Part shown: positions 4,727 to 26,840 of the stretch, in pieces
How the letters are laid out: each line of letters opens with the position of its first letter
How positions within the stretch are numbered: position 1 is the stretch's first letter
IMG/VR virus record: IMGVR_UViG_2778261571_000004
Reading direction: 5' to 3' (one strand)
Source: a virus
Taxonomy: Duplodnaviria; Heunggongvirae; Uroviricota; Caudoviricetes
DNA length: 64,000 nt
Position numbers and translations under genes: made by a program
The notes under the pieces: generated by a model
Seen by the model: the letters and a program-made list of their open reading frames with translations, nothing else
Told to the model about the DNA's origin: nothing
Databases searched by the model: none

Positions 4727-4736
4727 CACAACTCCG

Positions 4737-5209: not shown

Positions 5210-5220
5210 AAAGCAATCCT

Positions 5221-7180: not shown

Positions 7181-7474
7181 TTATCCCTCACAATTTCCAA
7201 TTTTCCAGACCATCGTCTATTTCAGCGTCAGGGTGGAATTGTACCGCATCAAATCCTACATCGAGCACCTTTCGAATGTTCTTGATGGTTTGCTATGTGA
7301 CACCGTAATCACGCAGCTTTTCTTCCCTCCCCTGACTCCCCCATACTCCGTTTCTGTACCCAATTGAGTCCGAGATCGTATGGTGCTCGAAACAGATATT
7401 TGGTAGACACTCAGAGTCATGCTGTGTAACGAGGGTAGGGCTACTAACTGTCGTCTTATACAATTTGGTGAGTT

Positions 7475-7723: not shown

Positions 7724-7727
7724 CTCC

Positions 7728-7744
7728 TAAACAATTTGTTTTCT
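7728..7744 (-). promoter_or_regulatory. motif-1 palindrome (AAACAATTTGTTTTC) abutting the SD, approximate
   Basis: Second copy about 50 nt further upstream (7777..7795), flanking a TTGTTG-17-TATAAG sigma70-like promoter. Confidence 0.45.
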
Positions 7745-7776
7745 TATATGGCTTATTATCTCAATCAACAAAAGGT

Positions 7777-7795
7777 AGAAAACAAATTGTTTTAG
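7777..7795 (-). promoter_or_regulatory. motif-1 palindrome, upstream copy, approximate
   Basis: gaaaacaaattgtttt. Confidence 0.45.
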
Positions 7796-7831
7796 GGCTT
7801 GTGTAAATCAGGAGGGATTGTGTCTATATGA

Positions 7832-7858
7832 AAATGCCCAGCGTATTGCTGGGCATTG
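7832..7858 (-). terminator. metG rho-independent terminator hairpin (gcccagc..gctgggc), approximate
   Basis: Stem-loop followed by T-rich tract immediately after the metG stop. Confidence 0.55.
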
Positions 7859-7876
7859 TGAAGAATGGTTGCTTAA

Positions 7877-9910
7877 TTACTTAACCTGGTGGCCAGGTTT
7901 AGCACCGACATCCGGGCTTAACAGGAAGATATCTTTCCCGCCAGGGCCAGCAGCCATCACCATGCCTTCGGAGATACCGAAGCGCATTTTACGCGGAGCC
8001 AGGTTAGCCACCATAATGGTGTGACGACCAATCAGTGCCTGTGGGTCTGGATAAGCAGAACGGATGCCTGAGAAGACATTGCGTTTTTCACCGCCGAGAT
8101 CCAGTGTCAGACGCAGCAGCTTGTCAGAACCTTCAACAAACTCTGCGTTTTCGATCAGCGCCACGCGCAGGTCAACTTTGGCGAAGTCGTCAAAGGTGAT
8201 GGTTTCCTGAATCGGGTCGTCAGCCAGTGGGCCAGTTACCGGTGCGGCTGTGGCTTTCACTTCTTCTTTGGATGCTTCCACCAGTGCTTCCACCTGTTTC
8301 ATATCGATACGGTTATACAGTGCCTTGAACGGATTCACTTTATGGCCCAGCAGCGGTTGCTGGATACCATCCCAGGTCAGTTCTGTATTCAGGAATGCTT
8401 CTGCACGTTCAGTCAGTTTCGGCAGTACCGGCTTCAGGTACGTCATCAGCACGCGGAACAGGTTAATGCCCATAGAGCAAATCGCCTGCAGATCGGCATC
8501 GCGTCCTTCCTGCTTCGCCACCACCCACGGAGCCTGTTCATCGACATAGCGGTTAGCCAGGTCAGCCAATGCCATGATTTCACGGATAGCTTTACCAAAT
8601 TCGCGGCTTTCCCATGCTTCGCCAATCACTTCAGCGGCATCAGTAAAGGTTTTGTACAGTTGCGGGTCAGCCAGTTCGTTTGCCAGCACGCCGTCAAAAC
8701 GCTTGTTGATAAAGCCTGCATTACGGGAGGCCAGGTTAACCACTTTGTTCACGATATCGGCATTCACGCGCTGAACGAAATCCTCCAGGTTGAGATCGAT
8801 ATCATCAATGCGCGAAGAGAGTTTCGCAGTGTAGTAGTAACGCAGGCTGTCAGCGTCAAAATGATTCAGCCAGGTGCTGGCTTTAATAAAGGTGCCGCGA
8901 GACTTGGACATCTTCGCGCCGTTCACCGTCACATAGCCATGAACAAACAGGTTGGTCGGCTTGCGGAAGTTGCTGCCTTCCAGCATGGCAGGCCAGAACA
9001 GGCTGTGGAAGTAAACGATATCTTTACCGATGAAGTGGTACAGCTCGGCGGTGGAGTCTTTCTTCCAGTATTCATCGAAGCTGGTGGTATCGCCGCGCTT
9101 GTCGCACAGATTCTTGAAGGAACCCATGTAGCCAATCGGCGCGTCCAGCCAGACGTAGAAATATTTGCCCGGCGCGTCCGGAATTTCAAAACCGAAGTAA
9201 GGCGCATCGCGGGAGATATCCCACTGTTGCAGGCCAGATTCAAACCACTCCTGCATTTTGTTTGCCACCTGCTCCTGCAACGCGCCGCTGCGGGTCCATG
9301 CCTGCAACATTTCGCTGAAAGAAGGCAGATCAAAGAAGAAGTGTTCGGAATCACGCATTACCGGGGTAGCGCCAGAAACCACCGATTTCGGCTCGATCAA
9401 TTCAGTCGGGCTATATGTTGCGCCGCAGACTTCACAGTTATCGCCGTATTGATCTGGCGCTTTACATTTCGGGCAGGTGCCTTTTACAAAACGATCCGGC
9501 AGGAACATGCCTTTTTCCGGGTCGTACAACTGAGAGATAGTGCGGTTTTTAATAAAACCGTTCTCTTTCAGGCGAGTATAGATAAGCTCAGACAACTGAC
9601 GGTTCTCTTCGCTGTGCGTCGAGTGATAGTTGTCATAGCTGATGTTAAAGCCTGCGAAATCAGTCTGGTGTTCCTGACTCATTTCGCCAATCATCTGTTC
9701 CGGTGTGATACCAAGCTGCTGTGCTTTCAGCATGATCGGCGTACCGTGGGCATCGTCGGCACAGATGAAATTAACCTCGTGGCCGCGCATTCGCTGGTAA
9801 CGAACCCAGACATCAGCCTGGATGTGCTCCAGCATATGGCCGAGGTGGATTGAGCCGTTAGCGTACGGCAGCGCGCACGTCACCAGAATTTTCTTCGCGA
9901 CTTGGGTCAT
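7877..9910 (-). CDS. metG: methionine--tRNA ligase
   Basis: 677-aa product from Met44 of the track ORF; near-identical over its length to enterobacterial MetG as I recall it (HLGH and KMSKS class-I motifs, CPKC..CEVCG zinc knuckles). Confidence 0.95.
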
Positions 9911-10067
9911 AGTAGGCATTACTTCTTTGTAGTGAAAAGGGGCTTGATAGTAACAAAATGGCCTTATGTCTGCCATGTGATAACAGCATTTCTCATAAAT
10001 GATTAAATGTCGTAGCTGGAGTACACTACAAGGCGACAATTGCGCAAATTAAAATAAAGGAGACGGG

Positions 10068-11168
10068 ATGAGCGAGTCCAAATCGCCGGATGCCCTGAGA
10101 GCAATGGTAGCCGGTACGCTGGCTAATTTTCAGCACCCAACCCTGAAACACAACCTGACTACGCTTAAAGCGTTACACCATGTTGCGTTGATGGATGACA
10201 CACTGCATGTCGAACTAATCATGCCTTTCGTGTGGAATAAGCCTTTTGAAGACCTGAAAGAGCAATGTAGTGGTGATCTGCTCCGTATCACTGGCGCAAA
10301 GGCTATCGACTGGAAGCTGTCGTACAACATTGCCACGCTTAAGCGCGTCAAAAACCAACCAGGCATTAATGGCGTTAAGAACATTATCGCCGTCAGCTCA
10401 GGCAAGGGCGGTGTAGGCAAATCGTCCACAGCAGTAAACTTGGCACTGGCGTTGGCTGCTGAAGGTGCGAAAGTTGGTATTTTGGATGCCGATATCTACG
10501 GTCCATCAATTCCAACCATGCTGGGTGCGGAAAACCAACGTCCAACCTCACCGGACGGCACTCACATGGCACCTATCATGTCTCATGGCCTGGCAACCAA
10601 CTCAATTGGTTATCTGGTCACTGACGACAACGCGATGGTGTGGCGTGGCCCGATGGCGAGCAAGGCGTTGATGCAAATGTTGCAAGAAACCTTATGGCCG
10701 GATCTGGATTATCTGGTGCTCGACATGCCGCCAGGCACCGGTGACATTCAATTGACACTGGCGCAAAACATTCCTGTAACTGGTGCGGTTGTGGTAACTA
10801 CGCCGCAAGACATCGCGCTGATCGATGCGAAGAAAGGCATTGTGATGTTCGAAAAAGTCGAAGTGCCGGTACTAGGTATCGTCGAAAACATGAGTGTGCA
10901 TATTTGCAGTAACTGCGGTCATCACGAGCCAATTTTTGGCACCGGTGGCGCACAGAAACTGGCCGAGAAATACAACACGCAGTTGTTAGGCCAAATGCCA
11001 CTTCATATCTCTCTTCGTGAAGATCTGGATAACGGAACACCAACCGTTATTAGTCGTCCAGATAGCGAATTTACGGCTATTTATCGTGACCTCGCAGATC
11101 GCGTTGCTGCCCAAATGTATTGGCAAGGTGAAGTAATACCTGGCGAAATCGCATTCCGCGCAGTGTGA
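10068..11168 (+). CDS. apbC: Fe-S cluster carrier ATPase ApbC/Mrp
   Basis: P-loop SSGKGGVGKS, ParA/Mrp family, CxxC near C-terminal half; divergent from metG as in enterobacterial chromosomes. Confidence 0.9.
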   Translation: MSESKSPDALRAMVAGTLANFQHPTLKHNLTTLKALHHVALMDDTLHVELIMPFVWNKPFEDLKEQCSGDLLRITGAKAIDWKLSYNIATLKRVKNQPGINGVKNIIAVSSGKGGVGKSSTAVNLALALAAEGAKVGILDADIYGPSIPTMLGAENQRPTSPDGTHMAPIMSHGLATNSIGYLVTDDNAMVWRGPMASKALMQMLQETLWPDLDYLVLDMPPGTGDIQLTLAQNIPVTGAVVVTTPQDIALIDAKKGIVMFEKVEVPVLGIVENMSVHICSNCGHHEPIFGTGGAQKLAEKYNTQLLGQMPLHISLREDLDNGTPTVISRPDSEFTAIYRDLADRVAAQMYWQGEVIPGEIAFRAV

Positions 11169-11205
11169 TAAAAAGGCGGTGCAATGCACCGCCTAATCAG
11201 CTCTC

Positions 11206-11595
11206 CTACATCACGGGACAATCATCAAACTCGCCACTTCTTGCGTCGTTGATAATGTGAGTGATCACACCAAACACGGCATTGCTGCCCGTGCATCCAT
11301 CGTCATCCTTTGGCAATGCTTCCTTCTTACCGGTTCTTAAATCCTCCAGATGCTGACGTGGGTACTTCCGGTATCTTTTTACGCGATATTCCCCATCCAG
11401 AGCGCATACAAGCAGAGAACCATCAACCGGGGTAAGTGAGGAATCGACCACCAGCAATGCACCCTGTAATATTCCCTCACGATGATGACTATCAGCTGCC
11501 CTCATGAAGTAGGTCGCTGAAGGATGTCTAATTATCTGCTGATCAAGAGAAATACGGCTCTCAGCATAATCCGCCGCAGGAGAAGGGAAGCCCAT
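11206..11595 (-). CDS. UmuD'-like S24 peptidase-family protein that begins at the UmuD autocleavage site (no N-terminal arm)
   Basis: Starts M-GFPSPAADY, matching UmuD from Gly25 onward; Ser (ADSHH) and Lys (VKRYRK) of the S24 dyad are present; an in-frame stop lies 4 codons upstream of the ATG. Confidence 0.7.
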   Translation of the reverse strand: MGFPSPAADYAESRISLDQQIIRHPSATYFMRAADSHHREGILQGALLVVDSSLTPVDGSLLVCALDGEYRVKRYRKYPRQHLEDLRTGKKEALPKDDDGCTGSNAVFGVITHIINDARSGEFDDCPVM

Positions 11596-11613
11596 AGCGT
11601 TTTCACCTCAGAA

Positions 11614-11633
11614 TACTGTTTATCCATACAGTA
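11614..11633 (-). promoter_or_regulatory. LexA (SOS) box TACTGTATGGATAAACAGTA upstream of the UmuD'-like gene, approximate
   Basis: Perfect CTGT-N8-ACAG about 20 nt 5' of the GAGGTGA SD. Confidence 0.65.
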
Positions 11634-11759
11634 TACATTAAAGATGCTTGAAGTGTGCAATAGCGCGATGCTTTGCGCTCGCCTGGTGGTGCGTTATTTT
11701 TTGGCTATATCTTCTTTCTGATATACCGGATCGTTTCCTTTTGGCAGCAGGAGGCTTAA

Positions 11760-11957
11760 CTACCGGTAGTGCCGTAGCCGTTCCATGAAATAGGTGCGCA
11801 GGTTCTCAGGTTGCTCACGGGCTACCTGTTCCGCTATGACGGGTATGTTCAATCGCTCTTTGTAGGCAACCCCCCTGGCAGCCAGGTCAACGTTAACTTT
11901 ATTCCTTTCTTCCTGGCTTTTAGCTGCTATGTTCCATTCGTTCATATTAAATCCCAT
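11760..11957 (-). CDS. small hypothetical protein (65 aa)
   Basis: ORF only; no family recognised. Confidence 0.3.
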
Positions 11958-12413
11958 CCAGAATAATTGAATAACGGCTATTATTTAGTCGCCGCAATAT
12001 CTTCAAAGTTTTTTTTCTCACCCCATTGCTTTTTGCGCACAGCTTATCTGGCTTGCGGTGCGCGAAATGTAAATTCGCCTTCAGAGTTATCCACAAAGTT
12101 ATGCACTTGCAACGGGGCCATTTTCCTCATACCGTGTTTGCACACACAGGAAATGGATATTTTATTAATTGAATTTTATTAAATAATAATGATAAGGAGA
12201 AAATTTGAGATGTAATCATGACATTAATAGATAGGGCCTGCATTACAGGCCCCAACTACATCAAGGAATTCACAGTTCCCTGATTTTTATACCGAAAACA
12301 TGTGCCGTAAGTTCACGTTAACGACTTTCTTTCACCGAATCCAACTATATAGAGGTTGGGTTTCTACGTCAACGTGAGAGCACGCAGCTTTACATTAGAC
12401 GAGGATTACCCTG

Positions 12414-12551
12414 ATGATTGTATTTTTTCAGTTTCTAAGTGCATTTTTAAATGCGCCTGTTCTTAGCCAAGTGCTGGCGATTGTCTTCATCGTGGTTCTG
12501 ATATGGTTTTTCAAGTCAGTGATAAACAGAGGCGTGCGCTGGCTTATTTAA
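12414..12551 (+). CDS. candidate small hydrophobic membrane peptide (about 45 aa), approximate
   Basis: ATG with GAGGA SD about 8 nt upstream; product MIVFFQFLSAFLNAPVLSQVLAIVFIVVLIWFFKSVINRGVRWLI; not in ORF track (<60 aa). Confidence 0.3.
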   Translation: MIVFFQFLSAFLNAPVLSQVLAIVFIVVLIWFFKSVINRGVRWLI

Positions 12552-13083
12552 TGTCGCGATGAGATATTAATTCCCTTGCTGTTTAACCATTTTTTGTGTG
12601 TGCTGGTGAGCGTGTGAAGGCTCAATTTGTTGCCCACCAGTATTTACTATTTCTAAGCTCCACAGTGTCACTTCCGCACAAACAACTTAGCGCGGAATCA
12701 GTATTCGGCCCAAGATGTAAAAAGCCAACCTGCGTTATGGTTCGCATTTCCAAATAGTGTTCTGAACGCCCTTGCCGGGCGCGAGATGTAGATTAGCGTT
12801 CACGCTATGCTGATATACGGCTTTAGACTTTCCATATTGCTGACAGGCTTTATCTGCGGTTTTTTGCAGGCTATCCAGCCCATACCAGCCATCAGACTGG
12901 ATGCTTACCTTTTCACCGTCATTGTATTGCACCATCGCGCACCCAAACATGGCTATCATCGCACCGACAATACCACTTTTCCAAAAAGCTCTAATTAGGT
13001 CATTCGTTACCTAATGTCCGAACTGCTAAAGCATCCAAGTTGCTGTAGAATCACCGCCAATTACATAAGCCTGAAATAAGTGG

Positions 13084-14642
13084 ATGAAAATGACAAGTAT
13101 TCAACAACGTGCAGAGCTTCATCGTCAAATCTGGCAAATTGCTAACGATGTCAGGGGTTCGGTCGATGGATGGGATTTTAAGCAATACGTTCTGGGCGCA
13201 CTTTTCTACCGTTTTATCAGCGAAAATTTTTCCAGTTATATTGAAGCCGGTGATGACAGTATCTGTTATGCGAAACTGGATGACAGCGTAATTACTGATG
13301 ACATTAAAGACGATGCCATCAAAACTAAAGGCTACTTCATCTACCCCAGTCAGCTTTTCTGCAACGTAGCTGCGAAAGCAAATACTAATGACAGACTGAA
13401 TGCAGATTTAAACAGCATCTTCGTTGCTATCGAAAGTTCTGCTTACGGTTATCCTTCAGAAGCAGACATCAAAGGTTTGTTTGCTGATTTCGATACCACC
13501 AGTAACCGCCTGGGTAACACCGTTAAAGATAAAAATGCCCGCCTGGCTGCGGTTCTGAAAGGGGTTGAAGGGTTAAAACTTGGTGACTTCAACGAACATC
13601 AGATTGACCTGTTCGGTGATGCCTATGAGTTCCTGATTTCTAACTATGCGGCAAATGCCGGTAAGTCAGGCGGTGAGTTCTTTACACCGCAGCACGTCTC
13701 CAGGCTGATTGCACAACTGGCAATGCATGGCCAGACCCACGTTAACAAAATCTACGACCCGGCAGCGGGTTCCGGCTCACTGTTGTTGCAGGCGAAAAAA
13801 CAGTTTGATAACCACATCATCGAAGAAGGCTTTTTCGGTCAGGAAATCAACCATACGACCTATAACCTGGCGCGTATGAACATGTTTTTGCACAATATCA
13901 ACTACGACAAGTTTGATATCAAGCTGGGTAATACACTGACTGAGCCGCACTTCAGAGATGAAAAACCGTTTGACGCCATCGTATCTAACCCACCGTATTC
14001 GGTGAAATGGATTGGCAGCGATGACCCGACGCTGATTAACGATGAGCGTTTTGCCCCGGCTGGCGTTCTGGCCCCCAAATCCAAAGCTGACTTTGCGTTT
14101 GTATTACATGCACTGAACTATCTTTCTGCCAAAGGTCGTGCTGCGATTGTCTGCTTCCCGGGTATTTTTTACCGTGGCGGCGCGGAGCAGAAAATCCGTC
14201 AGTATCTGGTCGATAATAACTATGTCGAAACCGTGATTTCACTGGCACCGAACCTGTTCTTTGGCACCACCATTGCAGTAAACATTCTGGTGCTGTCTAA
14301 ACATAAAACGGATACCAACGTTCAGTTTATTGACGCCAGCGAACTGTTCAAAAAAGAGACTAACAACAATATCCTGACCGATGCCCATATCGAACAGATT
14401 ATGCAGGTATTTGCCAGCAAGGAAGATGTTGCTCATCTGGCGAAATCTGTCACGTTTGAGACCGTTGTCGCGAATGACTATAACCTGTCGGTAAGCAGCT
14501 ATGTGGAAGCGAAAGATACTCGCGAAATTATCGATATCGCTGAGTTGAATGCAGAACTGAAAACCACGGTCAGCAAAATCGACCAGTTGCGTAAAGATAT
14601 TGATGCGATTGTGGCTGAAATTGAAGGCTGCGAGGTGCAGAA

Positions 14643-14646
<4 letters not shown>
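13084..14646 (+). CDS. hsdM: Type I restriction-modification methyltransferase subunit HsdM (Type IC, EcoR124-family)
   Basis: 520 aa; NPPY catalytic motif (NPPYSVKW), AdoMet motif [10 protein letters not shown]; matches my recollection of EcoR124 HsdM. Confidence 0.9.
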
Positions 14647-15890
<1,244 letters not shown>

Positions 15891-16011
15891 TTGACCATTG
15901 CTACCGACCGGGCCACCTTAACACCCGGTCTGTATATAGACTATTTTTTACGCGCCGGAAGTCACTCTTAACGCCCTTCCGGCCCTTGCCAGGCGGCACA
16001 AAGGATGCGCT

Positions 16012-19000
16012 ATGACTCATCAAACACACACCATTGCTGAATCCAATAACTTTATCGTCCTTGATAAGTACATCAAAGCTGAGCAAACAAGCGACAGCTA
16101 CCAGAGCGAATCGGACCTGGAACGTGAACTGATTCAGGACCTGCGGAATCAGGGTTATGAATTTATTTCCGTAAAATCACAGTCGGCAATGCTGTCCAAT
16201 GTTCGGGAACAGCTTCAGAGCCTCAATGGTGTGATGTTTAATGACAGCGAGTGGCGGCGCTTCACGGAGCAGTATCTGGACAATCCCAGCGATGGTATTC
16301 TGGATAAGACCCGTAAAATCCATATCGACTATATCTGCGACTTTATTTTTGACGACGGGCGTCTTGAGAACATCTATCTGATCGATAAAAAGAATCTCAT
16401 GCGCAACAAAGTGCAGATTATCCAGCAGTTTGAACAGGCAGGTTCTCATGCTAACCGTTATGACGTCACGATCCTGGTTAATGGCTTGCCTCTGGTGCAA
16501 ATCGAACTGAAAAAGCGCGGCGTGGCGATTCGTGAGGCTTTCAACCAGATACATCGTTACAGTAAAGAGAGTTTTAACAGCGAAAACTCCCTGTTTAAGT
16601 ATCTGCAACTGTTTGTCATTTCTAACGGCACCGATACCCGTTATTTTGCCAACACAACAAAGCGCGATAAAAACAGTTTTGATTTCACCATGAACTGGGC
16701 GAAATCAGACAACACGCTGATTAAAGACCTCAAAGACTTTACCGCTACCTTTTTCCAGAAACATACTCTGCTGAATGTTCTGGTGAACTACAGCGTGTTT
16801 GACAGTAGTCAGACGCTACTGGTGATGCGACCGTACCAGATTGCCGCCACCGAGCGCATTCTGTGGAAAATTAAGAGCTCCTTTACAGCGAAGAACTGGT
16901 CAAAACCGGAAAGCGGTGGGTATATCTGGCACACTACCGGTTCTGGTAAAACCCTTACCAGCTTTAAAGCCGCGCGTCTGGCAACAGAGCTGGACTTTAT
17001 TGATAAAGTCTTCTTTGTGGTCGACAGAAAAGACCTCGATTACCAGACCATGAAGGAATATCAGCGTTTTTCGCCAGACAGCGTCAACGGCTCGGAAAAT
17101 ACCGCAGGCCTTAAACGAAATCTGGATAAGGACGATAACAAAATTATCGTCACTACTATTCAGAAACTCAATAACCTGATGAAAGCAGAAAGCGACCTGC
17201 CTGTATATAATCAGCAAGTGGTGTTCATATTTGATGAATGCCACCGCAGCCAGTTTGGAGAAGCGCAGAAAAACCTGAAGAAGAAATTCAAACGCTATTA
17301 TCAGTTTGGTTTTACCGGCACCCCTATTTTCCCGGAAAACGCCTTAGGCTCAGAAACAACCGCCAGCGTATTTGGTCGTGAATTGCATTCGTATGTAATT
17401 ACCGATGCGATTCGTGACGAAAAAGTGCTCAAATTCAAGGTGGACTACAACGATGTGCGGCCACAGTTTAAGTCTTTAGAGACAGAAACTGACGAGAAAA
17501 AACTAAGTGCGGCTGAAAATCAGCAGGCGTTTCTTCATCCCATGCGTATTCAGGAAATCACGCAATATATTCTGAATAATTTCCGCCAGAAAACTCACCG
17601 TACCTTCCCTGGCTCAAAAGGTTTTAATGCTATGTTGGCAGTGAGCAGCGTGGATGCCGCGAAAGCCTATTATGCGACGTTTAAACGGTTACAAGAAGAA
17701 GCCGCTAATAAATCGGCTACCTATAAACCGCTGCGTATTGCGACAATCTTCTCCTTTGCCGCTAATGAAGAACAAAATGCCATTGGTGAAATTTCCGATG
17801 AAACTTTTGATACCAGCGCAATGGACAGCAGTGCTAAAGAGTTTCTGGACGCTGCAATTCGTGAATATAACAGCCATTTTAAAACTAACTTTAGCACCGA
17901 CAGTAACGGTTTTCAGAACTACTATCGTGATTTAGCCCAGCGGGTTAAAAATCAGGATATCGATCTGTTAATTGTCGTTGGGATGTTTTTAACCGGCTTC
18001 GACGCTCCAACATTGAACACGCTATTCGTCGATAAAAACTTGCGTTTTCACGGCCTGATGCAGGCATTTTCCCGCACCAACCGTATTTATGATGCAACTA
18101 AAACCTTCGGTAATATCGTCACTTTCCGGGATCTGGAACGCTCAACCATCGATGCCATAACGCTGTTTGGTGACAAAAACACCAAAAATGTAGTGTTAGA
18201 AAAGAGTTATGCAGAGTATATGGAAGGCTTTACTGATGCTGCTACAGGTGAAGCTAAACGCGGCTTTATGGCAGTAGTTTCAGAACTGGAACAACGGTTC
18301 CCTGACCCTGCCAGTATTGAAAGTGAAAAAGAGAAGAAAGACTTCGTTAAACTGTTTGGCGAATACCTGCGTGCCGAGAACATCCTGCAAAACTATGATG
18401 AATTTGCCACGCTGAAAGCCCTGCAACAAATCGATCTTAGCGATCCTGTTGCGGTAGAAAAATTCAAAGAAGAACATTATGTGGATGATGAAAAGTTCGC
18501 TGAATTGCAAACGATTCGTCTCCCTGCTGAACGCAAGATTCAGGATTATCGTTCTGCCTATAACGATATTCGTGACTGGCAGCGCCGCGAGAAAGAAGCT
18601 GATAAAAAAGAAAAATCAACCACTGACTGGGATGACGTGGTTTTTGAGGTCGATTTGCTGAAGTCTCAGGAAATAAACCTGGATTATATCCTTGGACTGA
18701 TTTTCGAACACAACAGACAAAATAAAGGCAAGGGCGAAATGATCGAAGAGGTCAAACGCTTAATTCGTTCAAGCCTGGGGAACCGGGCGAAAGAGGGCCT
18801 GGTGGTCGATTTTATTCAGCAAACGAACCTGGATGATTTACCAGACAAAGCCAGCATCATTGACGCGTTCTTTACCTTTGCTCAACACGAACAGCTACGT
18901 GAAGCAGAAGCGTTGATTAAAGAAGAAAATCTCAATGAAGAGGCGGCGAAACGCTATATTCGCACGTCTTTAAAACGCGAATACGCCACCGAAAATGGCA

Positions 19001-19128
19001 CAGAATTAAACGAGACATTACCAAAACTTAGTCCGTTAAACCCGCAATATAAAACGAAAAAACAGACGGTTTTCCAGAAAATCGTCACGTTTATTGAAAA
19101 GTTCAAAGGAGTAGGTGGGCAGATATAG
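16012..19128 (+). CDS. hsdR: Type I restriction endonuclease subunit HsdR (Type IC)
   Basis: 1038 aa; SF2 helicase motifs (TGSGKT, DECH) and N-terminal nuclease domain; length matches EcoR124 HsdR as I recall it. Confidence 0.9.
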
Positions 19129-19186
19129 TGTATTAATCTGAACCAGATCTGGCAGATATCTGTGCAAATTGCAGATAGCTGTCAGA

Positions 19187-19663
19187 TCAAGCCATCGTAG
19201 GGATGTCTGTATCCACTTTGAACTCCGGTACACCAACGAACTCTTTAACCTTCATCTGATAGCCGGTTCTGTCAGTTTTGATGACTTCCTGCTTGCCCTC
19301 GATAAATTGCTCACGCCACTCGTCGCGACGGGAAGCTGGCATGATCAGCAAAACGTTAGTCATATCCGTGACCTTCCTCCAGTACTCGGCCCAAATATTC
19401 TGTTTCACCCATTCCAGATCGACTTTATCCAGCCAAGCTCGATTCAAACGTGAGCGTTCTTCATCTGGTCGATGGTTCAGTTGCAGCAGGCGATTAATCA
19501 TGTTGTGGCGTTCGTCGCCATAAACGAAGTCGTGAACCTGATACATGAAGGCGATCTCTTTCTCGCACTCGGCTACGATTTCGTGGATGACGTTCATTTC
19601 CTGACGATAATCGATAGCAGTGTTTGAGTTGGTATCGTCGATGATGGAAAGAGCTGTATTCAT
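19187..19663 (-). CDS. hypothetical protein (158 aa), convergent with hsdR
   Basis: ORF only; weak SD; no motif-1 or motif-2 upstream. Confidence 0.45.
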   Translation of the reverse strand: MNTALSIIDDTNSNTAIDYRQEMNVIHEIVAECEKEIAFMYQVHDFVYGDERHNMINRLLQLNHRPDEERSRLNRAWLDKVDLEWVKQNIWAEYWRKVTDMTNVLLIMPASRRDEWREQFIEGKQEVIKTDRTGYQMKVKEFVGVPEFKVDTDIPTMA

Positions 19664-19766
19664 AATTGCACCATTAAGAAAAGATTTGTTTAATAGTGCA
19701 ATTATTTCAAAAATGAAAAGGTGCTAAATAGAAATTAACAGGCAATCCTTTAAATAAAGGTATTTG

Positions 19767-20381
19767 CTAATCATACTTTGAGGTATTTATAACCAGGATT
19801 TTGTTTGTATAAATCTTCTTAATATCCCATGTGACATTACCGGAATACCATTGACCGTTATATACTTGGTTTCCAGTTGCACCGGTCATAGTTACATAGA
19901 CAGGTCTGTCGTAATCGGTTCGTCTATAGTTATAAACCCCAACCATAGCAGGCATTACTGCGCACGGATACCCCATATCTATTGTAAATTGTGGGTCAGT
20001 AATAGTGATAAGTTTTGCATCAAGGGGCATCATCTCACCGTGATACACCATTGCGCCTGCGCTGTTATACATGGCAATGCCATAGCCAGAATGTGGTAAC
20101 ACCATATCAGAAAAAGCATAAACTGTTATTGTTCCGGGGCTACCATTTACCTGATGCAATCTGAGAGCATTGTATCCGTTACTATGTTCATGAATAAACA
20201 TCATGTTCGCCTTATTGCTGCTTTTTATGAAGAAAAAGCATGATTTGTTTGATGGGATTGATGTTTGAAAAACAGAACCTTTAGATGTAGACATTGTCCC
20301 TTTATTAATCAGATTTTGCGGAGTAAATTCAGGACTCATCCACAAACTTCCATCTGATTGAGTAATTGACATCCCGAACAT
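19767..20381 (-). CDS. hypothetical N/T/Y/G-rich protein (start at Met20 of track ORF 19767..20438)
   Basis: ATG lies 2 nt after the stop of 20384..20665; AT-rich region distinct in composition from neighbours. Confidence 0.4.
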   Translation of the reverse strand: MFGMSITQSDGSLWMSPEFTPQNLINKGTMSTSKGSVFQTSIPSNKSCFFFIKSSNKANMMFIHEHSNGYNALRLHQVNGSPGTITVYAFSDMVLPHSGYGIAMYNSAGAMVYHGEMMPLDAKLITITDPQFTIDMGYPCAVMPAMVGVYNYRRTDYDRPVYVTMTGATGNQVYNGQWYSGNVTWDIKKIYTNKILVINTSKYD

Positions 20382-20383
20382 AA

Positions 20384-20665
20384 TTATCCCCAGTATGTGT
20401 ATATGTAAGAACCAAGCCCCGTATATAAATTTGACCAACTAACCGTATTTCCATTAATAGTAACATTTGGAACAGGTAAATTGATGTAGTTGTCGTTGTT
20501 AAGAGGCATTAATGACCACACGGCATGTAGTGATTTACCCGGTGGCGGATTAGAGTACGTCTTAGAGCCTGATGACGCCGTAAATCGATCAAGAAAAAAA
20601 ATAGGTGTAAGGAAGCCAGTAACGTTAATTCCTTTATTGTTGTAAATCCCTGTACCGTATGCCAT
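20384..20665 (-). CDS. hypothetical N/T/Y/G-rich protein (93 aa)
   Basis: ORF tightly coupled to downstream ORF; AT-rich. Confidence 0.4.
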   Translation of the reverse strand: MAYGTGIYNNKGINVTGFLTPIFFLDRFTASSGSKTYSNPPPGKSLHAVWSLMPLNNDNYINLPVPNVTINGNTVSWSNLYTGLGSYIYTYWG

Positions 20666-20719
20666 TTTTCACCCTTGTTTTTATCAACACAATATGGCCG
20701 ATCATGCGGCCATATCAGA

Positions 20720-21289
20720 TCAATTAGAGCTTTGAAAGACTTTGTGTGGTTGTGTTGCGAGGTTATGTCGATGGCTTAACTCACGCATCATGTCTTCAAG
20801 GCGACTCTTTGTGTCGTCGAGTTGGTCGGCCATTGCTCCCAAAAGCTGACGAACGGCCATCGGATCATCGCTGTTTAGTGATGGCATTTTATAACCCGCC
20901 TGAGAAGACATAAGATTGAACGCAGACATCAACATCGTTAGAGAGGATTTAAGCCCAGCAATTTCACGATCTTTGCTGGCAATAATCGTCTCACTCTTGT
21001 TAGTGTCATCAGTTCGTTGAGTCTCGCTCACCATATCCAAAGTCGCCTGCAACTTATCAGCGCGCTCTTTTTCAGCAAGATAATGAACACCGAAATGATG
21101 TGCTAAAGCTACAACCTGAGTTGGCTCTTCAAAGGTGGACTCAAAATTAAGTGCTGTAACCACTCTCTCAAATATGGAAACGTCTTCTATTCCTCGAAGA
21201 ATGGCTAACATTTTGACCAGTTCATTAGCATCCATTTCTTCGAATAAGGCGTTTTGTTCATCAGCTATCGCTTTGCATTTCTTACACAT
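20720..21289 (-). CDS. hypothetical protein (189 aa)
   Basis: AGGAAAAACAC-ATG initiation context shared by backbone genes; motif-1 upstream. Confidence 0.5.
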   Translation of the reverse strand: MCKKCKAIADEQNALFEEMDANELVKMLAILRGIEDVSIFERVVTALNFESTFEEPTQVVALAHHFGVHYLAEKERADKLQATLDMVSETQRTDDTNKSETIIASKDREIAGLKSSLTMLMSAFNLMSSQAGYKMPSLNSDDPMAVRQLLGAMADQLDDTKSRLEDMMRELSHRHNLATQPHKVFQSSN

Positions 21290-21304
21290 GTGTTTTTCCT
21301 AATT

Positions 21305-21325
21305 CTTAAACAAGTTGTTTTCTTA
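21305..21325 (-). promoter_or_regulatory. motif-1 palindrome (TTAAACAAGTTGTTTTCTTA), approximate
   Basis: Recurrent motif 5' of SD. Confidence 0.45.
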
Positions 21326-21586
21326 TTGGCTTTATTGTGATGTGGCATAAAAGGGGAGCAAGCTAAACGTAAAGGTGCAAACTCTCTATTTCGGTCAACG
21401 AAACACAAGGGCCATTTGGCCCTTGTCATTAACACGTTGCTTTACGGACTAGCGGATAAGCGAAGTAGATCGCCAGACCAATGAGGACGCCATCAGAAAT
21501 GACAGACATCATCTTTCCCGTAAAATCCACCAACACCGCCATCACCAGAAGAGCAATGACGGTCACAAGCCGGAATCTCTCAAGCA

Positions 21587-22012
21587 TTAGAGATAAGCAT
21601 CCAGTGACAACTGAAGCGCCTGGGCGATCTTTTTCAGTGCCTGCTCTTCTTGTTCACCAATGCCGTCCTGGTCGGCAATATCAAGGCACAGACACAGAAC
21701 ATCGACCGCCTCTGGAGTGCCCGCAATATCAGCCAGCTCACGCATAGCCTGCGCATTCGCAGAACGAGGGGACGCTTCGTAACGAGCACGGATATTGGCG
21801 CTCATTTGGGCAATTTCACCAGCAAACGGAGAAAACGCAGGCAGAGCTGCAATTGTCTTCTCAAGAATGGCAATTTCTTTTGCGTCACATGTGCCGTCGG
21901 CATAGGAGATCATGTACGCGCCCCACACGGTGGCCTCAACCGCATCACGGTTCTCCATTTTTTTGACTTCGATAACAGCTTTACGAGTTTTCTTTTTGAA
22001 GAAACCTAACAT
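21587..22012 (-). CDS. TerB-like domain protein (tentative)
   Basis: Segment YADGTCDAKEIAILEKTIAAL resembles TerB-type acidic motif; weak, from memory. Confidence 0.35.
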   Translation of the reverse strand: MLGFFKKKTRKAVIEVKKMENRDAVEATVWGAYMISYADGTCDAKEIAILEKTIAALPAFSPFAGEIAQMSANIRARYEASPRSANAQAMRELADIAGTPEAVDVLCLCLDIADQDGIGEQEEQALKKIAQALQLSLDAYL

Positions 22013-22033
22013 GTGTTTTCCTTTTGTTATTTG

Positions 22034-22052
22034 TCAAAACAAGTTGTTTTAT
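22034..22052 (-). promoter_or_regulatory. motif-1 palindrome (AAAACAAGTTGTTTT), approximate
   Basis: Recurrent motif. Confidence 0.45.
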
Positions 22053-22105
22053 AGTTTCATAAATTGCTTACGCAAAGATGGTCAATGCATATGCACTAAC
22101 AGCCG

Positions 22106-22294
22106 TCAGAAATAACCAAGTACCGAACCGACTGGAAAAACAAAAATCCCTACTACACGAGCCAGAGTCATGCCAGCCTGAAACTTGAGATCACCTGAGC
22201 AAACGAGTTTTATAATGTTGGATACCCAACCGGCGGCCATGAGAGCCAGAATTGCCAGCCAAATTTTCCCAAAGTGATTTGAAAGCCAGTTCAT
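22106..22294 (-). CDS. small membrane protein (62 aa)
   Basis: Hydrophobic segments; AAGGTGG SD; ATGA overlap with stop of 22291..22542. Confidence 0.45.
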   Translation of the reverse strand: MNWLSNHFGKIWLAILALMAAGWVSNIIKLVCSGDLKFQAGMTLARVVGIFVFPVGSVLGYF

Positions 22295-22542
22295 ACAACC
22301 ACCTTAGTCACAACATGATCCTGAGTAACTGGATGAACTTGAGGTATCGCATCCACCGTCATCCCATCCAGAGTGACAGGACGCTCTACTGTAGTGGTGG
22401 TAATTGTCGTCGACGGAGGTGTGGTGATGGATGAACCCGGCATCAAAAGGCTCTGGCCGGCTGGAACGGCTACCGTCGCCAGTGAAACTATAATGAGAAC
22501 GTAGGCCATTGGTTTCAGCCTCTTTCTTTGAAAATTTTCCAT
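22291..22542 (-). CDS. small secreted/membrane-anchored T/P-rich protein (83 aa; possible start at internal Met)
   Basis: Basic N-terminus + hydrophobic core + AVPA-GQS signal-peptidase-like site; AAGGA SD; embedded out of frame in 22304..22798. Confidence 0.35.
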   Translation of the reverse strand: MENFQRKRLKPMAYVLIIVSLATVAVPAGQSLLMPGSSITTPPSTTITTTTVERPVTLDGMTVDAIPQVHPVTQDHVVTKVVV

Positions 22543-22798
22543 TCGAACTGTCCTTGTTGTTTTTCTCCTTCACTAAAGGCCGTGTACTTTTCGCTTCGCG
22601 TGAAGAACCAGAGGCAACAATCGCCCCCACGTTCGCAACAACTGACGCTTGATTATCTAAACGTTCATTCAGCAACCGAACGGTAGTCTCTAGTTCATCA
22701 AGACGTGACATAACACGACCGCTAAACAATTCGGCCAAAATTTGACGTAAAGAACGAGGACGTTTAGTTGCAGAAGTGAAATAGGTTTGACGTGCCAT
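22304..22798 (-). CDS. hypothetical protein; N-terminal about 80 aa coiled-coil-like, C-terminal half low-complexity and overlapping 22291..22542
   Basis: Two long overlapping frames; only one may be real over 22304..22542. Confidence 0.35.
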   Translation of the reverse strand: MARQTYFTSATKRPRSLRQILAELFSGRVMSRLDELETTVRLLNERLDNQASVVANVGAIVASGSSREAKSTRPLVKEKNNKDSSNGKFSKKEAETNGLRSHYSFTGDGSRSSRPEPFDAGFIHHHTSVDDNYHHYSRASCHSGWDDGGCDTSSSSSYSGSCCD

Positions 22799-22943
22799 GT
22801 GGACTCCATCCAGTGTCAGAAAGAGTTGCGGCTGGCGATTGCCAGCCGCCTTTCTCGTTCCATCCTGGAACTGTGTCTTACCGACACATTGTCATCCTGA
22901 CGCTGATAAGATACATGATTTAAAATGATAGGTAAACACTTAC

Positions 22944-23537
22944 TTACCACTTGTTATAAACAAAACCAATATCTTTCTTGTGAGGCATATCTGCTGCTGA
23001 AAAAGCTGCGATCTTCGCGAGTCGATCACATATTTCATTTTCACGATGCCCGGCGTGACCTTTAACCCACTTCCAGCGAACATTATGTCGACTTGCGGCC
23101 TCATCCAGACGCTTCCACAGATCAACATTCTTTACCGGTTTTTTGTCAGAAGTCATCCATCCATTGCGTTTCCACCATTTCATCCACTGTGTCATGCCGT
23201 TTTTCAGATACTGGCTATCAGAGTGCAAAATAACGTTGCATGGATATTTCAAACGCTCCAGCCCGATAAGTGCGCCCATCATCTCCATGCGGTTATTGGT
23301 GGTGCTATGAAAACCATCTGAGAACTCGCGTTCCTCACCACGATACTGGAGAACGATACCGTAACCGCCCGGGCCACCCGGATTTTTAAGGCAAGAGCCA
23401 TCACTAAAGATTTTCACGGTTTTGAGCTGGGGATTGAACTCTACGACAGGCGTTGTGGGATTGGTGCGGGGAGAATTTTTGTTTTTGGCTTTTTTGCGAG
23501 TTTTTGCTTGCGATCGGGCTGGTGTCTTCGTCGTCAT
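22944..23537 (-). CDS. rnhA: ribonuclease HI with lysine-rich N-terminal extension
   Basis: DGSC..GPGGYG..TNNRMEL..HSDSQY..VKGHAGH..NE.CD motifs as in bacterial RNase HI; AGGAG SD before Met18 of the track ORF. Confidence 0.8.
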
Positions 23538-24119
23538 ATAAACTCCTGAATCAAGCGCCGCGCCGATTTTTTCCTCGCGCGTGCGCACACGCGTGCGTGT
23601 TAATAATTATTAAAATAAACAAATTACTTCCCAGAACAGGTTTTTATAAACCTGAACTGAACGAACGAAGTGAGTGAAGTTCACCTCGAACGAAGTGAGA
23701 GGTTGTCTTTTCAGGTAATACTCTCCCAGGGAGGTGAGTATAAAATTCCTCACCAACCTGGTCGTTTCATAACCTGAAAAGCTATGGTCTAAGTCTACTG
23801 CCAGCTTAGACTTGGGAAGTTATGGATGACAGCACCCCAGAACCGAGATCTTCCCACACTTTATGAAGGGGAGTACTGGATTCAACCTCTCGAAACACCC
23901 CAGACTCGACAATCATAAAGTGACCCTTGTCTCTGCTCACTTTGGTTCCCCCTTCCCCGACACCTATACGGCACCGGTTCTACGCTGGTAGTGAGCTTTT
24001 TTAAACCTGACGCCAGTGACGCTTACCCCCACCCATCAGGTCGAGCCTCCAGTCTACGACTGGAAACTATCATATCTTAGCACTTACAATTCACTTTATG
24101 AATAGTTTGTACTTATCTA

Positions 24120-24350
24120 TCATTGTGATTGATTATTTTCTCGACCATGTAGTTGAACATTCAAGGCAAACACCTCATTGATCAACTCACCTAAAAGCTG
24201 TTCAACAAGTTCGCGATGCTCGCCAAGATGCAAGCACTTAATTGCCCACTCGTACAAGTTGAAAGCCTGCTCACGATCTTTCATCATTTCACGAGCCTGG
24301 GCCAGAAAATCGCTCTCTACGAGCGCAACGACATTAGTCGGGTATGACAT
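24120..24350 (-). CDS. small hypothetical protein (start at Met9 of track ORF)
   Basis: AAGGAAA SD before Met9. Confidence 0.4.
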   Translation of the reverse strand: MSYPTNVVALVESDFLAQAREMMKDREQAFNLYEWAIKCLHLGEHRELVEQLLGELINEVFALNVQLHGRENNQSQ

Positions 24351-24535
24351 GTTGGTTTCCTTAAAGTGGTTCATAAAATCGATTTTAAAGCGTCTGGGAA
24401 GGGGTTCTAGTGGATTCTGTAGTGATGTTCAGGTCTGGAGTCTCTGATACAAAACAGCCTGCTTCCGTATATTAATAATTAATATGTAGTTATTTATATA
24501 TACAGAAGCAGGCTAATTACAGACGCCAGAACAAA

Positions 24536-25129
24536 CTAAGCAGCCTTCTTTGATGGTCTTTTTTTCCTGATCACATTCGCAGGATCATACCCTCCCAGAC
24601 TTTTCATGACGTCCAAAGGGATCTTGCTTATAGAGTGCCCAGCGTCCTGACAGAATCCTCGAAAAACAACGAGCATACTGCCACCGGGGTTGATGTTTAC
24701 TTCTACCTGACCCAAATTGACGTCAGGCTCGACAAACGCTACGCGGCCACCAGACAGAATAATCGTCTCATTCGCACACTCTGTTGCACGCTCATACCAC
24801 TTTGTATCGAGGGATTGAGGAATTAGCATCACTGTTGTAACTCCGCGAGCCTGCTCACGTATAGCCGCATCAATCCAGGGGGAGATTTTGGAGTAGGGTG
24901 GATTGAGGAAGGCAATTGTACCTGGCTGTCCCCATTCAGATTTCAAAGCATCACGCTCAACGCCTATGAAATTAGGCAGCTTCGCATTGTCCTTGTTGCA
25001 GGCAACGTCAACATCAAATGTCACTCCAAGATAACGTTGAATGGCAGAAAACAGCCAGTCAGGTGTTCTCCAGAGGTCACGAAGAGAGTTGTCGCGCTTT
25101 CGCTGTTTGATTTTTTCGGCTGCAATCAT
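24536..25129 (-). CDS. DNA N6-adenine methyltransferase, phage Dam family (orphan)
   Basis: WRTPDWLF...FDVDVAC...FLNPPYS signature of small phage Dam-type MTases; no cognate nuclease adjacent. Confidence 0.7.
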   Translation of the reverse strand: MIAAEKIKQRKRDNSLRDLWRTPDWLFSAIQRYLGVTFDVDVACNKDNAKLPNFIGVERDALKSEWGQPGTIAFLNPPYSKISPWIDAAIREQARGVTTVMLIPQSLDTKWYERATECANETIILSGGRVAFVEPDVNLGQVEVNINPGGSMLVVFRGFCQDAGHSISKIPLDVMKSLGGYDPANVIRKKRPSKKAA

Positions 25130-25140
25130 CTTCTTTCTCG

Positions 25141-25160
25141 ATAGGTAAGTGATTACCTAT
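25141..25160 (-). promoter_or_regulatory. motif-2 palindrome (ATAGGTAAG-tg-aTTACCTAT) upstream of Dam-family gene, approximate
   Basis: Inverted repeat about 12 nt 5' of the start. Confidence 0.4.
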
Positions 25161-25312
25161 TTTTGCATTTGATTTTATGTCTGGCAATCAAATAAAACGC
25201 GCCAGAAATGCAAACGAGAAGCTCTCTGGCGCGTTTTTGTGGTGCTGGATATGTGATTGGCTTACCCAGCACTATAAAGCTCTCTATGGGCTTTATTTTC
25301 AGTAGGGGGACG

Positions 25313-26122
25313 TCATCCAATAGTGTACTCCGCTACAAACTTCTTAACGATCGGTGATTCTTCGTTCAATGTTAGATTTCCACCGTCTCTAACGGCAATT
25401 CCTGTCGCTGGAAATACAGCCATCATTTGCCCAGCCTGAGTTGACGCAGTGTTAAGCGGATACGGTTTTTCTGGATTGCTCATTAAAGCAATCTTAATAC
25501 TATTACTTGTAGCCTTCTTTTCTGTGAGAAGGTGTCTCATGGAAATTACCGTGTAAACACTAATATCTGGACCTCCGCTAAACCAATTAAGAAGGTTTAA
25601 TATCTTATCCTTTGCTTTGACAGGCGCGTTATCGTAAGCGTCTAAGAAAATATCTGTTTCTAAGCCTGCTTTATTGAAAAACGAATCATCTTTATCACTT
25701 AAAGTAAAACGAGGACCTCTTGCAGTACGCGCTTTTTTATTTGTGTTGCTATCATTTGACTGTTGAACTTTTAATTCATCATTAACATCAACACACTCTT
25801 CAACCTCAATCAATCCCAATTGTTCTGGCTCATTTTCGGCAACTTCACCACTTTCAGTGTTAATTACGTTTATAGGCTCATGAGCTAACTCCAACTCATT
25901 TAAAGCGGAGCTGAAATCACCTGCTTTTTCTTCATTGAACAGTTCTTTGGCAACATCATCAGAACTCATGGCTACGCCAGCATCGAGGCCGAGAAGCAGA
26001 TCGTCAATATCATCAGTATTTTCAACCTGTGCAGCTTTTTTTACTGGTTCATCAAGTGATTGCAACATGGCTGTCAGCTCATCCAGATCATCATTTGTCA
26101 TTACATTTTCAACCGAACTCAT
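25313..26122 (-). CDS. hypothetical protein with strongly acidic N-terminal half
   Basis: AGGAGA SD; first about 120 aa D/E-rich. Confidence 0.5.
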   Translation of the reverse strand: MSSVENVMTNDDLDELTAMLQSLDEPVKKAAQVENTDDIDDLLLGLDAGVAMSSDDVAKELFNEEKAGDFSSALNELELAHEPINVINTESGEVAENEPEQLGLIEVEECVDVNDELKVQQSNDSNTNKKARTARGPRFTLSDKDDSFFNKAGLETDIFLDAYDNAPVKAKDKILNLLNWFSGGPDISVYTVISMRHLLTEKKATSNSIKIALMSNPEKPYPLNTASTQAGQMMAVFPATGIAVRDGGNLTLNEESPIVKKFVAEYTIG

Positions 26123-26282
26123 GTAAGTCTCCTTCTGTTTAGTTGCATTTGCGTTTCGATGGCTACATTTTGACTAAACCTATCAGGCGGAAAAGTATTA
26201 AATACAGGCAGGAAATGATTGAAAGGCGACTGTTCTTTAAAAGAAAGCCTGCTTCAAACTCTCTTTAAAGCAGGCTTTTGTT

Positions 26283-26840
26283 TTACACAATTTCAGAGGG
26301 TAATTTAAAAAATCCGTATTTATTACGTGCCTTAAAGAAGCATTGCATCATTAAGTTTGTGTCATATAAGGCACTATGTGCTTTGGCATGATCGTATATA
26401 AAGCCAAGAGAGAAGGCCAATTCTTCAAGGCGAGGACGTTTACCGTCTTCTGTGGCCCACAATCCCGATAACATAGTATCTATAACGGGAACGTCTGGCA
26501 GTCTTACTCCATACCCTGAAAACTCGTGTCTAATAAATGGTATATCAAACGCTTCGCCGTTATGAGCAACCCACGCACTACATGCCTCCATATAAGCGCC
26601 AATTTCGCTGGCATGATTTGACAACAAAGGTTCAGCTGCCAGCTGTTCTAATGAAATGCCATGAACGGCTTGAGCTTTCGGATCTATGTTTCTGCGAGGG
26701 TTAAAACGCATCTCCAGACTATCAATATGTCTCTGTGTCTCCAGTTCATAGCGGGTAATTGCGATTTCAATAATTTTATGACCAGCAAGGAAATCCAGTC
26801 CCGTAGACTCGATATCGATGCCTGCAACAATCGTTGTCAT
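26283..26840 (-). CDS. DEDDh-family 3'-5' exonuclease (DnaQ/ExoX-like)
   Basis: IDIESTG (Exo I), HNGEAFD (Exo II), HSALYD (Exo III) motifs. Confidence 0.7.
   Translation of the reverse strand: MTTIVAGIDIESTGLDFLAGHKIIEIAITRYELETQRHIDSLEMRFNPRRNIDPKAQAVHGISLEQLAAEPLLSNHASEIGAYMEACSAWVAHNGEAFDIPFIRHEFSGYGVRLPDVPVIDTMLSGLWATEDGKRPRLEELAFSLGFIYDHAKAHSALYDTNLMMQCFFKARNKYGFFKLPSEIV

Follow-up and report, generated by a model that had tools for sequence, protein, structure and literature searches.

The stretch of 64,000 nucleotides analysed here as a whole (the window; IMG/VR virus record IMGVR_UViG_2778261571_000004) is by its nucleotide sequence an E. coli phage-plasmid of SSU5-like type that shares 97-98% identity with phage Cyrano (pLF82), and the subject of this report is a block of three minus-strand open reading frames (ORFs) that lies at its positions 19187-20700, just beyond the type I restriction-modification gene hsdR. 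The block is made up of two unrelated things, namely the stump of a methyltransferase gene and a pair of probable host-recognition genes. The pair, encoding proteins of 93 and 204 amino acids (aa), is probably a displaced host-recognition module, most likely the tail-tip receptor-binding module of the phage-plasmid, and it belongs to a widespread, poorly characterised and horizontally exchanged kind typified by T1 gp32/gp31 and N15 gp22/gp23. What is unusual, and notable, is that the module lies outside the tail operon and has close ties to the alleles of Nonagvirus and of Shiga toxin (Stx) phages. The original prediction, which was made from the letters alone, had placed all three ORFs correctly and on the correct strand, and had described them as three unassigned genes, possibly defence or surface-related. 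The two genes of the pair stand as real genes, and the ORF at 19187..19663 proves to be the 5' remnant of a known gene; likewise the surface half of the suggestion is retained, most likely as host-receptor recognition, and the defence half is not, there being no significant PADLOC match and no expression above background in the lysogen. The features concerned are the following.

20384..20665, minus strand: upstream gene of the pair, 93 aa, beta-rich, phrog_557 (T1 gp32/N15 gp22 type)
19767..20381, minus strand: downstream gene of the pair, 204 aa, all-beta, phrog_425 (T1 gp31/N15 gp23 type)
19744..20740: insertion of ~1 kb relative to SSU5 (by BLAST), with the two-gene cassette inside
19187..19663, minus strand: 5' remnant, 158 codons, of an SSU5_095/CYRAN_90-type DUF4942 DNA methyltransferase gene

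Assignment of the pair comes from profile matches to both of its proteins. The 204-aa protein matches phrog_425, named 'membrane associated protein' (E 2.2e-72, residues 1-204 on profile positions 3-224 of 224), and the 93-aa protein matches phrog_557, named 'outer membrane protein' (E 6.1e-29, residues 1-93 on profile positions 1-92 of 100); T1 ST32/ST31 and SSU5_023/024 match the same two profiles. The pair thus has clear homology to phage structural or host-recognition families, a result that the original prediction had itself named as speaking against its suggestion of accessory genes. By tblastn the 204-aa protein is found in 329 phage records, and in every context inspected among the phages and elements listed here the pair adjoins J or a tail fibre gene, with the small gene preceding the large one in JenP2, PA2, Tuinin, SSU5 and T1.

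JenP2: pair convergent to the central tail fibre gene J
Warwickvirus Tuinin: pair convergent to J
Stx phages PA2 and VT2-Sakai (Sp5): pair after the tail fibre gene and before lom
SSU5: pair after the side fibre and adhesin genes and before Cor
T1: pair after J and before Cor
an E. coli prophage: pair after a 3108-aa GpJ

The window pair, unlike these, is not beside J or a tail fibre gene, its neighbours being the methyltransferase remnant and a homologue of SSU5_094. The usual position has been described in the BASEL study as a 'bona fide RBP locus' (RBP, receptor-binding protein), whose alleles match the terminal receptor with no exceptions in the phages tested (PMC8594841), and a 2026 preprint upheld the correlation of allele and receptor on 101 siphoviruses (bioRxiv 10.64898/2026.04.02.716166); the RBP label in these two sources is one of correlation and AlphaFold3 models. 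Among carriers of the family, FritzSarasin (Bas04), whose allele is of the Warwickvirus type and shares 40% identity with the window protein, uses BtuB, the receptor of T1 is FhuA, and BamA is reported as a receptor for short-tailed Stx phages. For JenP1, JenP2 and BRET a search of the literature brought no receptor to light.

The closest relatives of the window pair are gp22/gp21 of JenP2 (also of JenP1 and BRET), at 76% and 82% aa identity, with the same sizes of 93 and 204 aa, the same order and the same tight coupling. Nucleotide similarity to the Nonagvirus JenP2 is 76% and is limited to 19767-20672, that is, to the two genes themselves. The difference is one of setting, since the JenP2 pair has J as its immediate neighbour and its carrier is a virulent siphovirus, whereas the window pair lies ~55 kb from J in a temperate phage-plasmid. 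Homologues of the same sizes as the window pair occur in the Stx2 phage Sp5 (ORF72/ORF73, ECs1234/ECs1235) and in phages of the 933W type, and in the PA2 copy the small protein is 64% and the large one 61% identical in aa sequence to its window counterpart. In the Stx phages the pair follows a tail fibre gene, and that fibre has 62.5% identity to the C-terminus of Cyrano J in its last 24 residues, but the virion is that of a podovirus and lom comes after the pair. More distant is the 'extended cor cassette' of T1 (gp32/gp31), N15 (gp22/gp23), HK022 and phi80, which belongs to the same PHROG families 557 and 425, has the small gene before the large and accompanies a J with a homologous C-terminal tip domain; it differs in its identity of ~24-28%, in its Cor lipoprotein and in its receptor FhuA, the window pair having no adjoining cor.

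Within the window the two genes form a compact cassette. The larger one had been delimited mechanically as an ORF at 19767..20438 starting at TTG, and its homologues are ~204 aa long and start at the equivalent Met, which supports the ATG at 20381 and with it the tight coupling that had been claimed: the TAA of the small gene occupies 20386..20384 and is followed by a 2-nt gap and the ATG at 20381. Both genes have a purine-rich Shine-Dalgarno-like stretch before the start. The GC content is 38.6% for the pair cassette and 40.6% for the whole block against a window mean of 45.6%, which puts the block at the 2nd percentile of equal-sized windows; the AT-richness noted originally is therefore a property of the pair, and the ORF at 19187..19663, at 47.6%, is above the mean and so lies outside the AT-rich stretch. 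At the SSU5 locus (L003) the sequence corresponding to 19183-19743 is 8001-8561 and that corresponding to 20741-20980 is 8643-8882, so that ~82 bp stand in SSU5 where the window has its insertion. Absence from the SSU5 site, 76% nucleotide identity to JenP2 and AT-richness bear out an independent acquisition as regards the pair; the remaining ORF is backbone.

Compared with the alleles of Cyrano, a Shigella sonnei plasmid, JenP2 and an Stx phage, the pair has a ratio of nonsynonymous to synonymous substitution (dN/dS) of 0.03-0.12 with synonymous divergence (dS) up to 1.6 or more, values that indicate strong purifying selection. Both genes are intact in 119 plasmids of PLSDB (113 Escherichia, 5 Shigella, 1 uncultured). 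Judged from these comparisons, the pair is a real, discrete, mobile and selected cassette and more than two chance ORFs.

It is also independent of the restriction cassette. The hsdR/methyltransferase junction occurs in only 48 plasmids, against 119 with the pair, and Cyrano has the pair together with an intact methyltransferase gene and no hsd. Linkage of the pair to hsd was considered as a candidate explanation and rejected on these counts, at least 71 of the 119 pair-bearing plasmids as well as phage Cyrano being without the hsd junction. The position of the block at the edge of restriction-modification cargo, on which the original prediction had laid weight, is thus not matched by co-occurrence.

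Since the tail genes of the element lie outside the window, genome-level comparisons were made on Cyrano and other close relatives as proxies. The tail module of Cyrano comprises J (17690-22417), a tail fibre gene (22511-26536) and a holin gene (26739), with neither the pair nor cor among them; the Cyrano pair is at 81.9-82.8 kb and its J at 17.7-22.4 kb. In SSU5 and in the E. coli plasmid pCUVET20-PYO4.2, a pair of 84 and 188 aa lies between the fibre and holin genes. The corresponding Cyrano interval (L008, 26536-26739) is without the adhesin (SSU5_022), the pair (SSU5_023/024) and the Cor (SSU5_025) that occupy 8777-10464 of the SSU5 locus L011. A tblastn search of PLSDB with the 204-aa protein gave matches in 250 plasmids at 261 places, of which 119 are of the window type (at least 80% identity); another 128 fall under 60% identity, and those rows of this band that were sampled lie at the SSU5 tail-module position. 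There is one place per record among the matches listed, and at most 11 records could hold two copies. It appears from this distribution that related plasmids carry either this copy or the tail-module copy and almost never both.

In an SSU5-like element with ~70% nucleotide identity to the window backbone, the syntenic locus, likewise away from the tail genes and directly after an ORF6N anti-repressor-like gene, has an allele 50% identical to that of the window (P0017; 95 aa + 216 aa, at 5710-6648 of locus L016 from GCA_021861085.1, contig DAFUVE010000036.1). The displaced locus must accordingly be old, and it has allelic diversity like that of the J-adjacent locus elsewhere. Such turnover of alleles is what one would expect where host range is determined, and it suggests that this plasmid family has long had a second locus of that kind.

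These observations also bear on the notion that the pair is a passenger, gained through recombination with a Nonagvirus-like or Stx-like phage and kept with no part in the infection cycle of the element, host recognition being the work of J or the side fibre alone, a notion that we regard as quite unlikely. Its position among early or middle genes and away from the tail operon, its being an AT-rich insertion relative to SSU5, the non-essential nature of the Sp5 homologues, and a J tip nearly identical to that of SSU5 in the face of a very different SSU5 pair would all agree with a passenger. A passenger would not be expected to keep both frames intact throughout the 119 plasmids under so low a dN/dS, to be distributed in a manner complementary to the tail-module copy, or to be represented by a divergent allele at the same locus of a distant relative.

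Expression in the lysogen is informative as to the stage at which the pair could act. In the LF82 (Cyrano) lysogen the normalised counts of CYRAN_88 and CYRAN_89 are 7.6 and 11.4, where capsid and tail genes have ~5-24 and the repressor 96 (PMC9928086). Thirteen Cyrano genes, comprising toxin-antitoxin and other expressed accessory genes, were called morons, and CYRAN_88 and CYRAN_89 are not included among these (PMC9928086). The pair is therefore silent in the lysogen, not rising above the silent prophage background, which argues against a role in lysogenic conversion or defence and fits a function in the lytic cycle.

It is accordingly very improbable that the block as a whole represents defence or accessory cargo, taken up with the neighbouring restriction-modification genes or functionally tied to them, as adjacency to hsdR and the low GC of the pair had led one to consider. 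Searches against PADLOC-DB gave no match for the pair at E <= 1 and only chance-level matches (E >= 0.01) for the two ORFs flanking it, that of the remnant ORF being at E 0.011, and there was no match for the pair in Pfam or NCBIfam; for the pair and the ORF at 19187..19663 alike, nothing significant was found in the three collections. The first ORF is moreover a truncated backbone gene, the pair is a member of a tail-associated family and, unlike the expressed morons of the same element, it is silent in the lysogen, and most pair-bearing plasmids, as set out above, are without the hsd junction. The pair is neither a defence system nor cargo associated with restriction-modification.

The database names of the two families, 'outer membrane' and 'membrane associated', together with the adjacency of the pair to cor in T1, SSU5, N15, HK022 and phi80, raise the alternative that the pair acts at the cell envelope and has no place in the virion, serving in superinfection exclusion or in masking the receptor from other phages or from progeny, whether together with the Cor lipoprotein or in its manner. 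Such a role has been proposed in the KanT1 paper (PMC13164509), and the Sp5 homologues are dispensable for infection (PMC5155283). Neither protein of the window pair, though, has a hydrophobic segment, signal peptide or lipobox (the maximal 19-residue Kyte-Doolittle means are 1.1 and 0.94), so that the 'membrane' names are not supported by the sequences of the pair; Cys is absent from the 93-aa protein and occurs only at positions 48 and 140 of the 204-aa protein. In comparison with the exclusion lipoproteins Cor, Llp and Rtp45 there was no phrog_1119 match and no N-terminal hydrophobic stretch. No small lipoprotein ORF was found in the flanking gaps of 54 nt and 103 nt, and a cor-like gene adjoining the pair is absent also from JenP2 and the Stx phages. 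As the pair is not above background in the lysogen, and as the 204-aa protein would resemble a binder of the extracellular face of a receptor and not the periplasmic exclusion lipoprotein Rtp45, exclusion is an unlikely account of the pair.

That resemblance is one of predicted fold and of sequence profile. N, G, T, S and Y are the commonest residues of both proteins, and the AlphaFold2 models are almost all beta, with predicted local distance difference test (pLDDT) values of 91 for the 204-aa and 78 for the 93-aa protein, so the description of the pair as N/T/Y/G-rich and beta-rich-looking was apt. Comparison of the models by Foldseek, the check that had been proposed, was less decisive. The 93-aa model had no informative structural match, and for the 204-aa model the match listed with top probability, the RBP of phage Oekolampad (PDB 9RPT chain C), is not significant (E 0.046, template modelling score 0.33). 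The 204-aa sequence does give a partial match to phrog_1265 (E 3.4e-6, residues 40-156 on profile positions 158-287 of 332), the family that the Oekolampad RBP defines (E 2e-122). The structural link between the two proteins, which taken alone would be of moderate strength, is backed by this match of sequence to profile. BLASTP of the 204-aa protein against the Oekolampad RBP was not significant, and a phmmer search of PDB, made over all its sequences with both pair proteins, gave nothing at E <= 1.

Oekolampad (Bas18) differs from the window pair in several respects. Its RBP, solved bound to LptDE, has 321 aa as against 204 and is 12% identical, and the small protein that goes with it is an exclusion lipoprotein, secreted and provided with signal peptide and Cys, whereas the 93-aa protein is not a lipoprotein. 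LptD binding by the window allele cannot be inferred from the likeness to Oekolampad. A 2026 study had no Foldseek or HHpred matches for the T1 gp31/N15 gp23 family (PMC13164509), and the link to a solved LptD-binding protein would be the first fold-level anchor for that family.

The central fibre of the element appears to be one on which such a protein could be accommodated. Residues 1388-1575 of Cyrano J are 37.5% identical to residues 680-870 of JenP2 J (E 2e-33), and the Cyrano J tip domain also matches the tips of T1 and Tuinin J and of PA2 gp58. In the mechanism favoured here both proteins of the pair would be made during lytic growth. The 204-aa protein would be a small RBP held by non-covalent contacts at the C-terminal tip of J, the central tail fibre, where its binding of an E. 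coli outer-membrane protein would set the terminal receptor, with the co-translated 93-aa protein as its adaptor or assembly partner. The module lies at a second locus ~55 kb from the tail fibre genes, between the SSU5_094 homologue and the methyltransferase gene.

For such an arrangement T5 pb5 (oad) and Llp provide a functional analogy only, with no sequence or fold match found. T5 pb5, at ~640 aa, is far larger than the 204-aa protein. It is a separate receptor-binding protein, held non-covalently at the central fibre tip (PMC8594841, PMC9586334). Its gene lies away from the other tail genes, beside the terminase genes (PMC8594841, PMC9586334).

A number of points weigh against a receptor-binding role for the pair. 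For phrog_425 and phrog_557, presence in the virion and receptor binding remain predictions, drawn from correlation and AlphaFold3 models. In Sp5 the single deletions of ORF72 (92 aa) and ORF73 (205 aa) fall outside the nine essential genes (PMC5155283), which were defined by plaque formation and lysogenisation of K-12 (PMC5155283), and the pair is therefore not an indispensable receptor binder in Sp5. The Cyrano J tip is 81.5% identical to the SSU5 tip, and the two pairs are only 27-30% identical, so that tip and pair have not varied together; arrival of the J tip together with the pair was rejected as a candidate because of this likeness of the tips. The last 40 residues of J, moreover, fail to separate carriers of the pair from Oekolampad, which has the other RBP family, 16-20 of the 40 being identical throughout; since the likeness of the J tip is common to both RBP families, it speaks for compatibility only and not for specificity. 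The genes around the pair form a long run on the minus strand and serve replication and nucleotide metabolism, and a scan of 19000-22400 found no promoter-like site directly upstream of it, so that late expression is assumed; in the same promoter and terminator scan promoter-like sites were fewer than in shuffled sequences. Finally, the genome-level argument is made on Cyrano and close relatives, the tail genes being outside the window.

With these points taken into account, a displaced tail-tip receptor-binding module remains the probable reading. A bolder extension, that the second locus is an exchangeable host-range cassette shared with virulent Nonagvirus and with Shiga-toxin podoviruses and that phrog_425 and phrog_1265 form one structural superfamily of small tip-docking binders common to siphoviruses and podoviruses, is tentative, its chances being a little short of even; the two families, the T1/N15 type and the LptD-binding one, have been described as unrelated. 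The matter is of some practical interest because the cassette is present in 119 PLSDB records, SSU5-like phage-plasmids are frequent in both E. coli and Shigella, and their host-range genes matter for predicting their spread. If the reading holds, annotation or receptor prediction that looks only downstream of J would miss the RBP across this lineage, and the allele family would become a candidate host-range determinant of the short-tailed Shiga-toxin phages.

The third ORF of the block, at 19187..19663, is very probably the stump of a 561-aa methyltransferase gene, its stop codon having been made at the hsd junction. It matches positions 1-150 of 548 of phrog_6263 'DNA methyltransferase' (E 2.4e-68), as well as phrog_16000, a family of identical 158-aa fragments, and is collinear with the N-terminal ~157 residues of CYRAN_90 and SSU5_095, both proteins of 561 aa (~98% nucleotide identity to Cyrano and 86% to SSU5). 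In the intact Cyrano methyltransferase DUF4942 is the sole Pfam domain and lies at residues 140-295. The remnant, lacking residues ~158-561, has thus lost nearly all of DUF4942 and everything C-terminal to it, and it has no Pfam match. It is a probable pseudogene fragment that stands apart from the pair, and it is backbone rather than cargo.

The truncation is explained by the arrangement of the neighbouring restriction cassette, whose last gene ends at 19128, so that the block was rightly described as immediately downstream of hsdR.

13084-14646: hsdM, ORF of 520 aa
14643-15890: hsdS, ORF of 415 aa
16012..19128, plus strand: hsdR, ORF of 1038 aa, last gene of the type I restriction-modification cassette hsdM-hsdS-hsdR
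19183..19215: right-hand recombination junction of the hsd cassette and the backbone, a transition zone partly similar to Cyrano (BLAST breakpoint)
20720..21289, minus strand: homologue of SSU5_094/CYRAN_87, 189 aa, phrog_5508 (E 5.6e-112), backbone, upstream of the pair

By BLAST the window is collinear with Cyrano in two blocks, 9498-11643 corresponding to 1-2144 of the Cyrano locus and 19183-26000 to 7995-14813 (97.9% identity). Homology to Cyrano therefore ends at 11643 and restarts at 19183, and the hsdMSR cassette (13084..19128) lies within the 7.5 kb segment between (11644..19182). The segment is a replacement, 5.85 kb of Cyrano (2145-7994 of the locus) being gone, and what was displaced is a set of ea22-, eae-, eaa- and ead-like genes together with 1.2 kb from the 3' end of the methyltransferase gene. 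With the exchange of this 5.85 kb of backbone for the 7.5 kb hsdMSR-bearing segment, the methyltransferase gene lost its final ~400 codons. The remnant ORF has its TGA stop at 19187..19189, inside the junction zone and 58 nt from the end of hsdR. When the two sequences are read side by side across the junction, the window has ...PEFKVDTDIPTMA and then TGA, whereas Cyrano has ...PEFKAETVIPTMLNLLNDRHK... and runs ~400 codons further. Small ORFs at 11760-12959 lie near the left junction of the segment (~11643). On the other side of the pair, SSU5 nucleotide homology starts again at 20741, inside the SSU5_094 homologue gene.

In a BLAST comparison with phage and plasmid collections, the interval 19100-20750, which spans the end of hsdR, the stump and the pair, is 96.7% identical to Cyrano and 99.5% identical to many non-mobilizable E. 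coli plasmids of ~110 kb, and 424 plasmids align to some part of it. Resistance and toxin-antitoxin genes are known from related literature among the cargo of SSU5-like phage-plasmids. Upstream of the block, two small minus-strand genes at 21429-22012 are the counterparts of the 'P1 TciA-like' and 'TciB-like' genes of Cyrano; these are backbone genes, and their counterparts in a Shigella sonnei plasmid are named 'tellurite/colicin resistance protein' and 'DUF3927'. A compositional anomaly is seen at 6001-7000, where GC skew is +0.32 and AT skew -0.25 (GC skew elsewhere in the window stays within about +/-0.13); this kilobase has short ORFs only and two short imperfect direct repeats, and neither tandem repeats nor an Rfam family was found there.

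As to the restriction genes themselves, hsdR is named 'HsdR family type I site-specific deoxyribonuclease' in identical plasmids. HsdS contains three consecutive copies of the tetrapeptide TAEL, which we take to be a hallmark of the plasmid-borne type IC EcoR124 family; in that family the presence of two versus three TAEL repeats alters the length of the spacer in the recognition site. The 3' end of hsdR by itself matches more than 700 plasmids, conjugative ones among them, and the hsd cassette therefore circulates widely.

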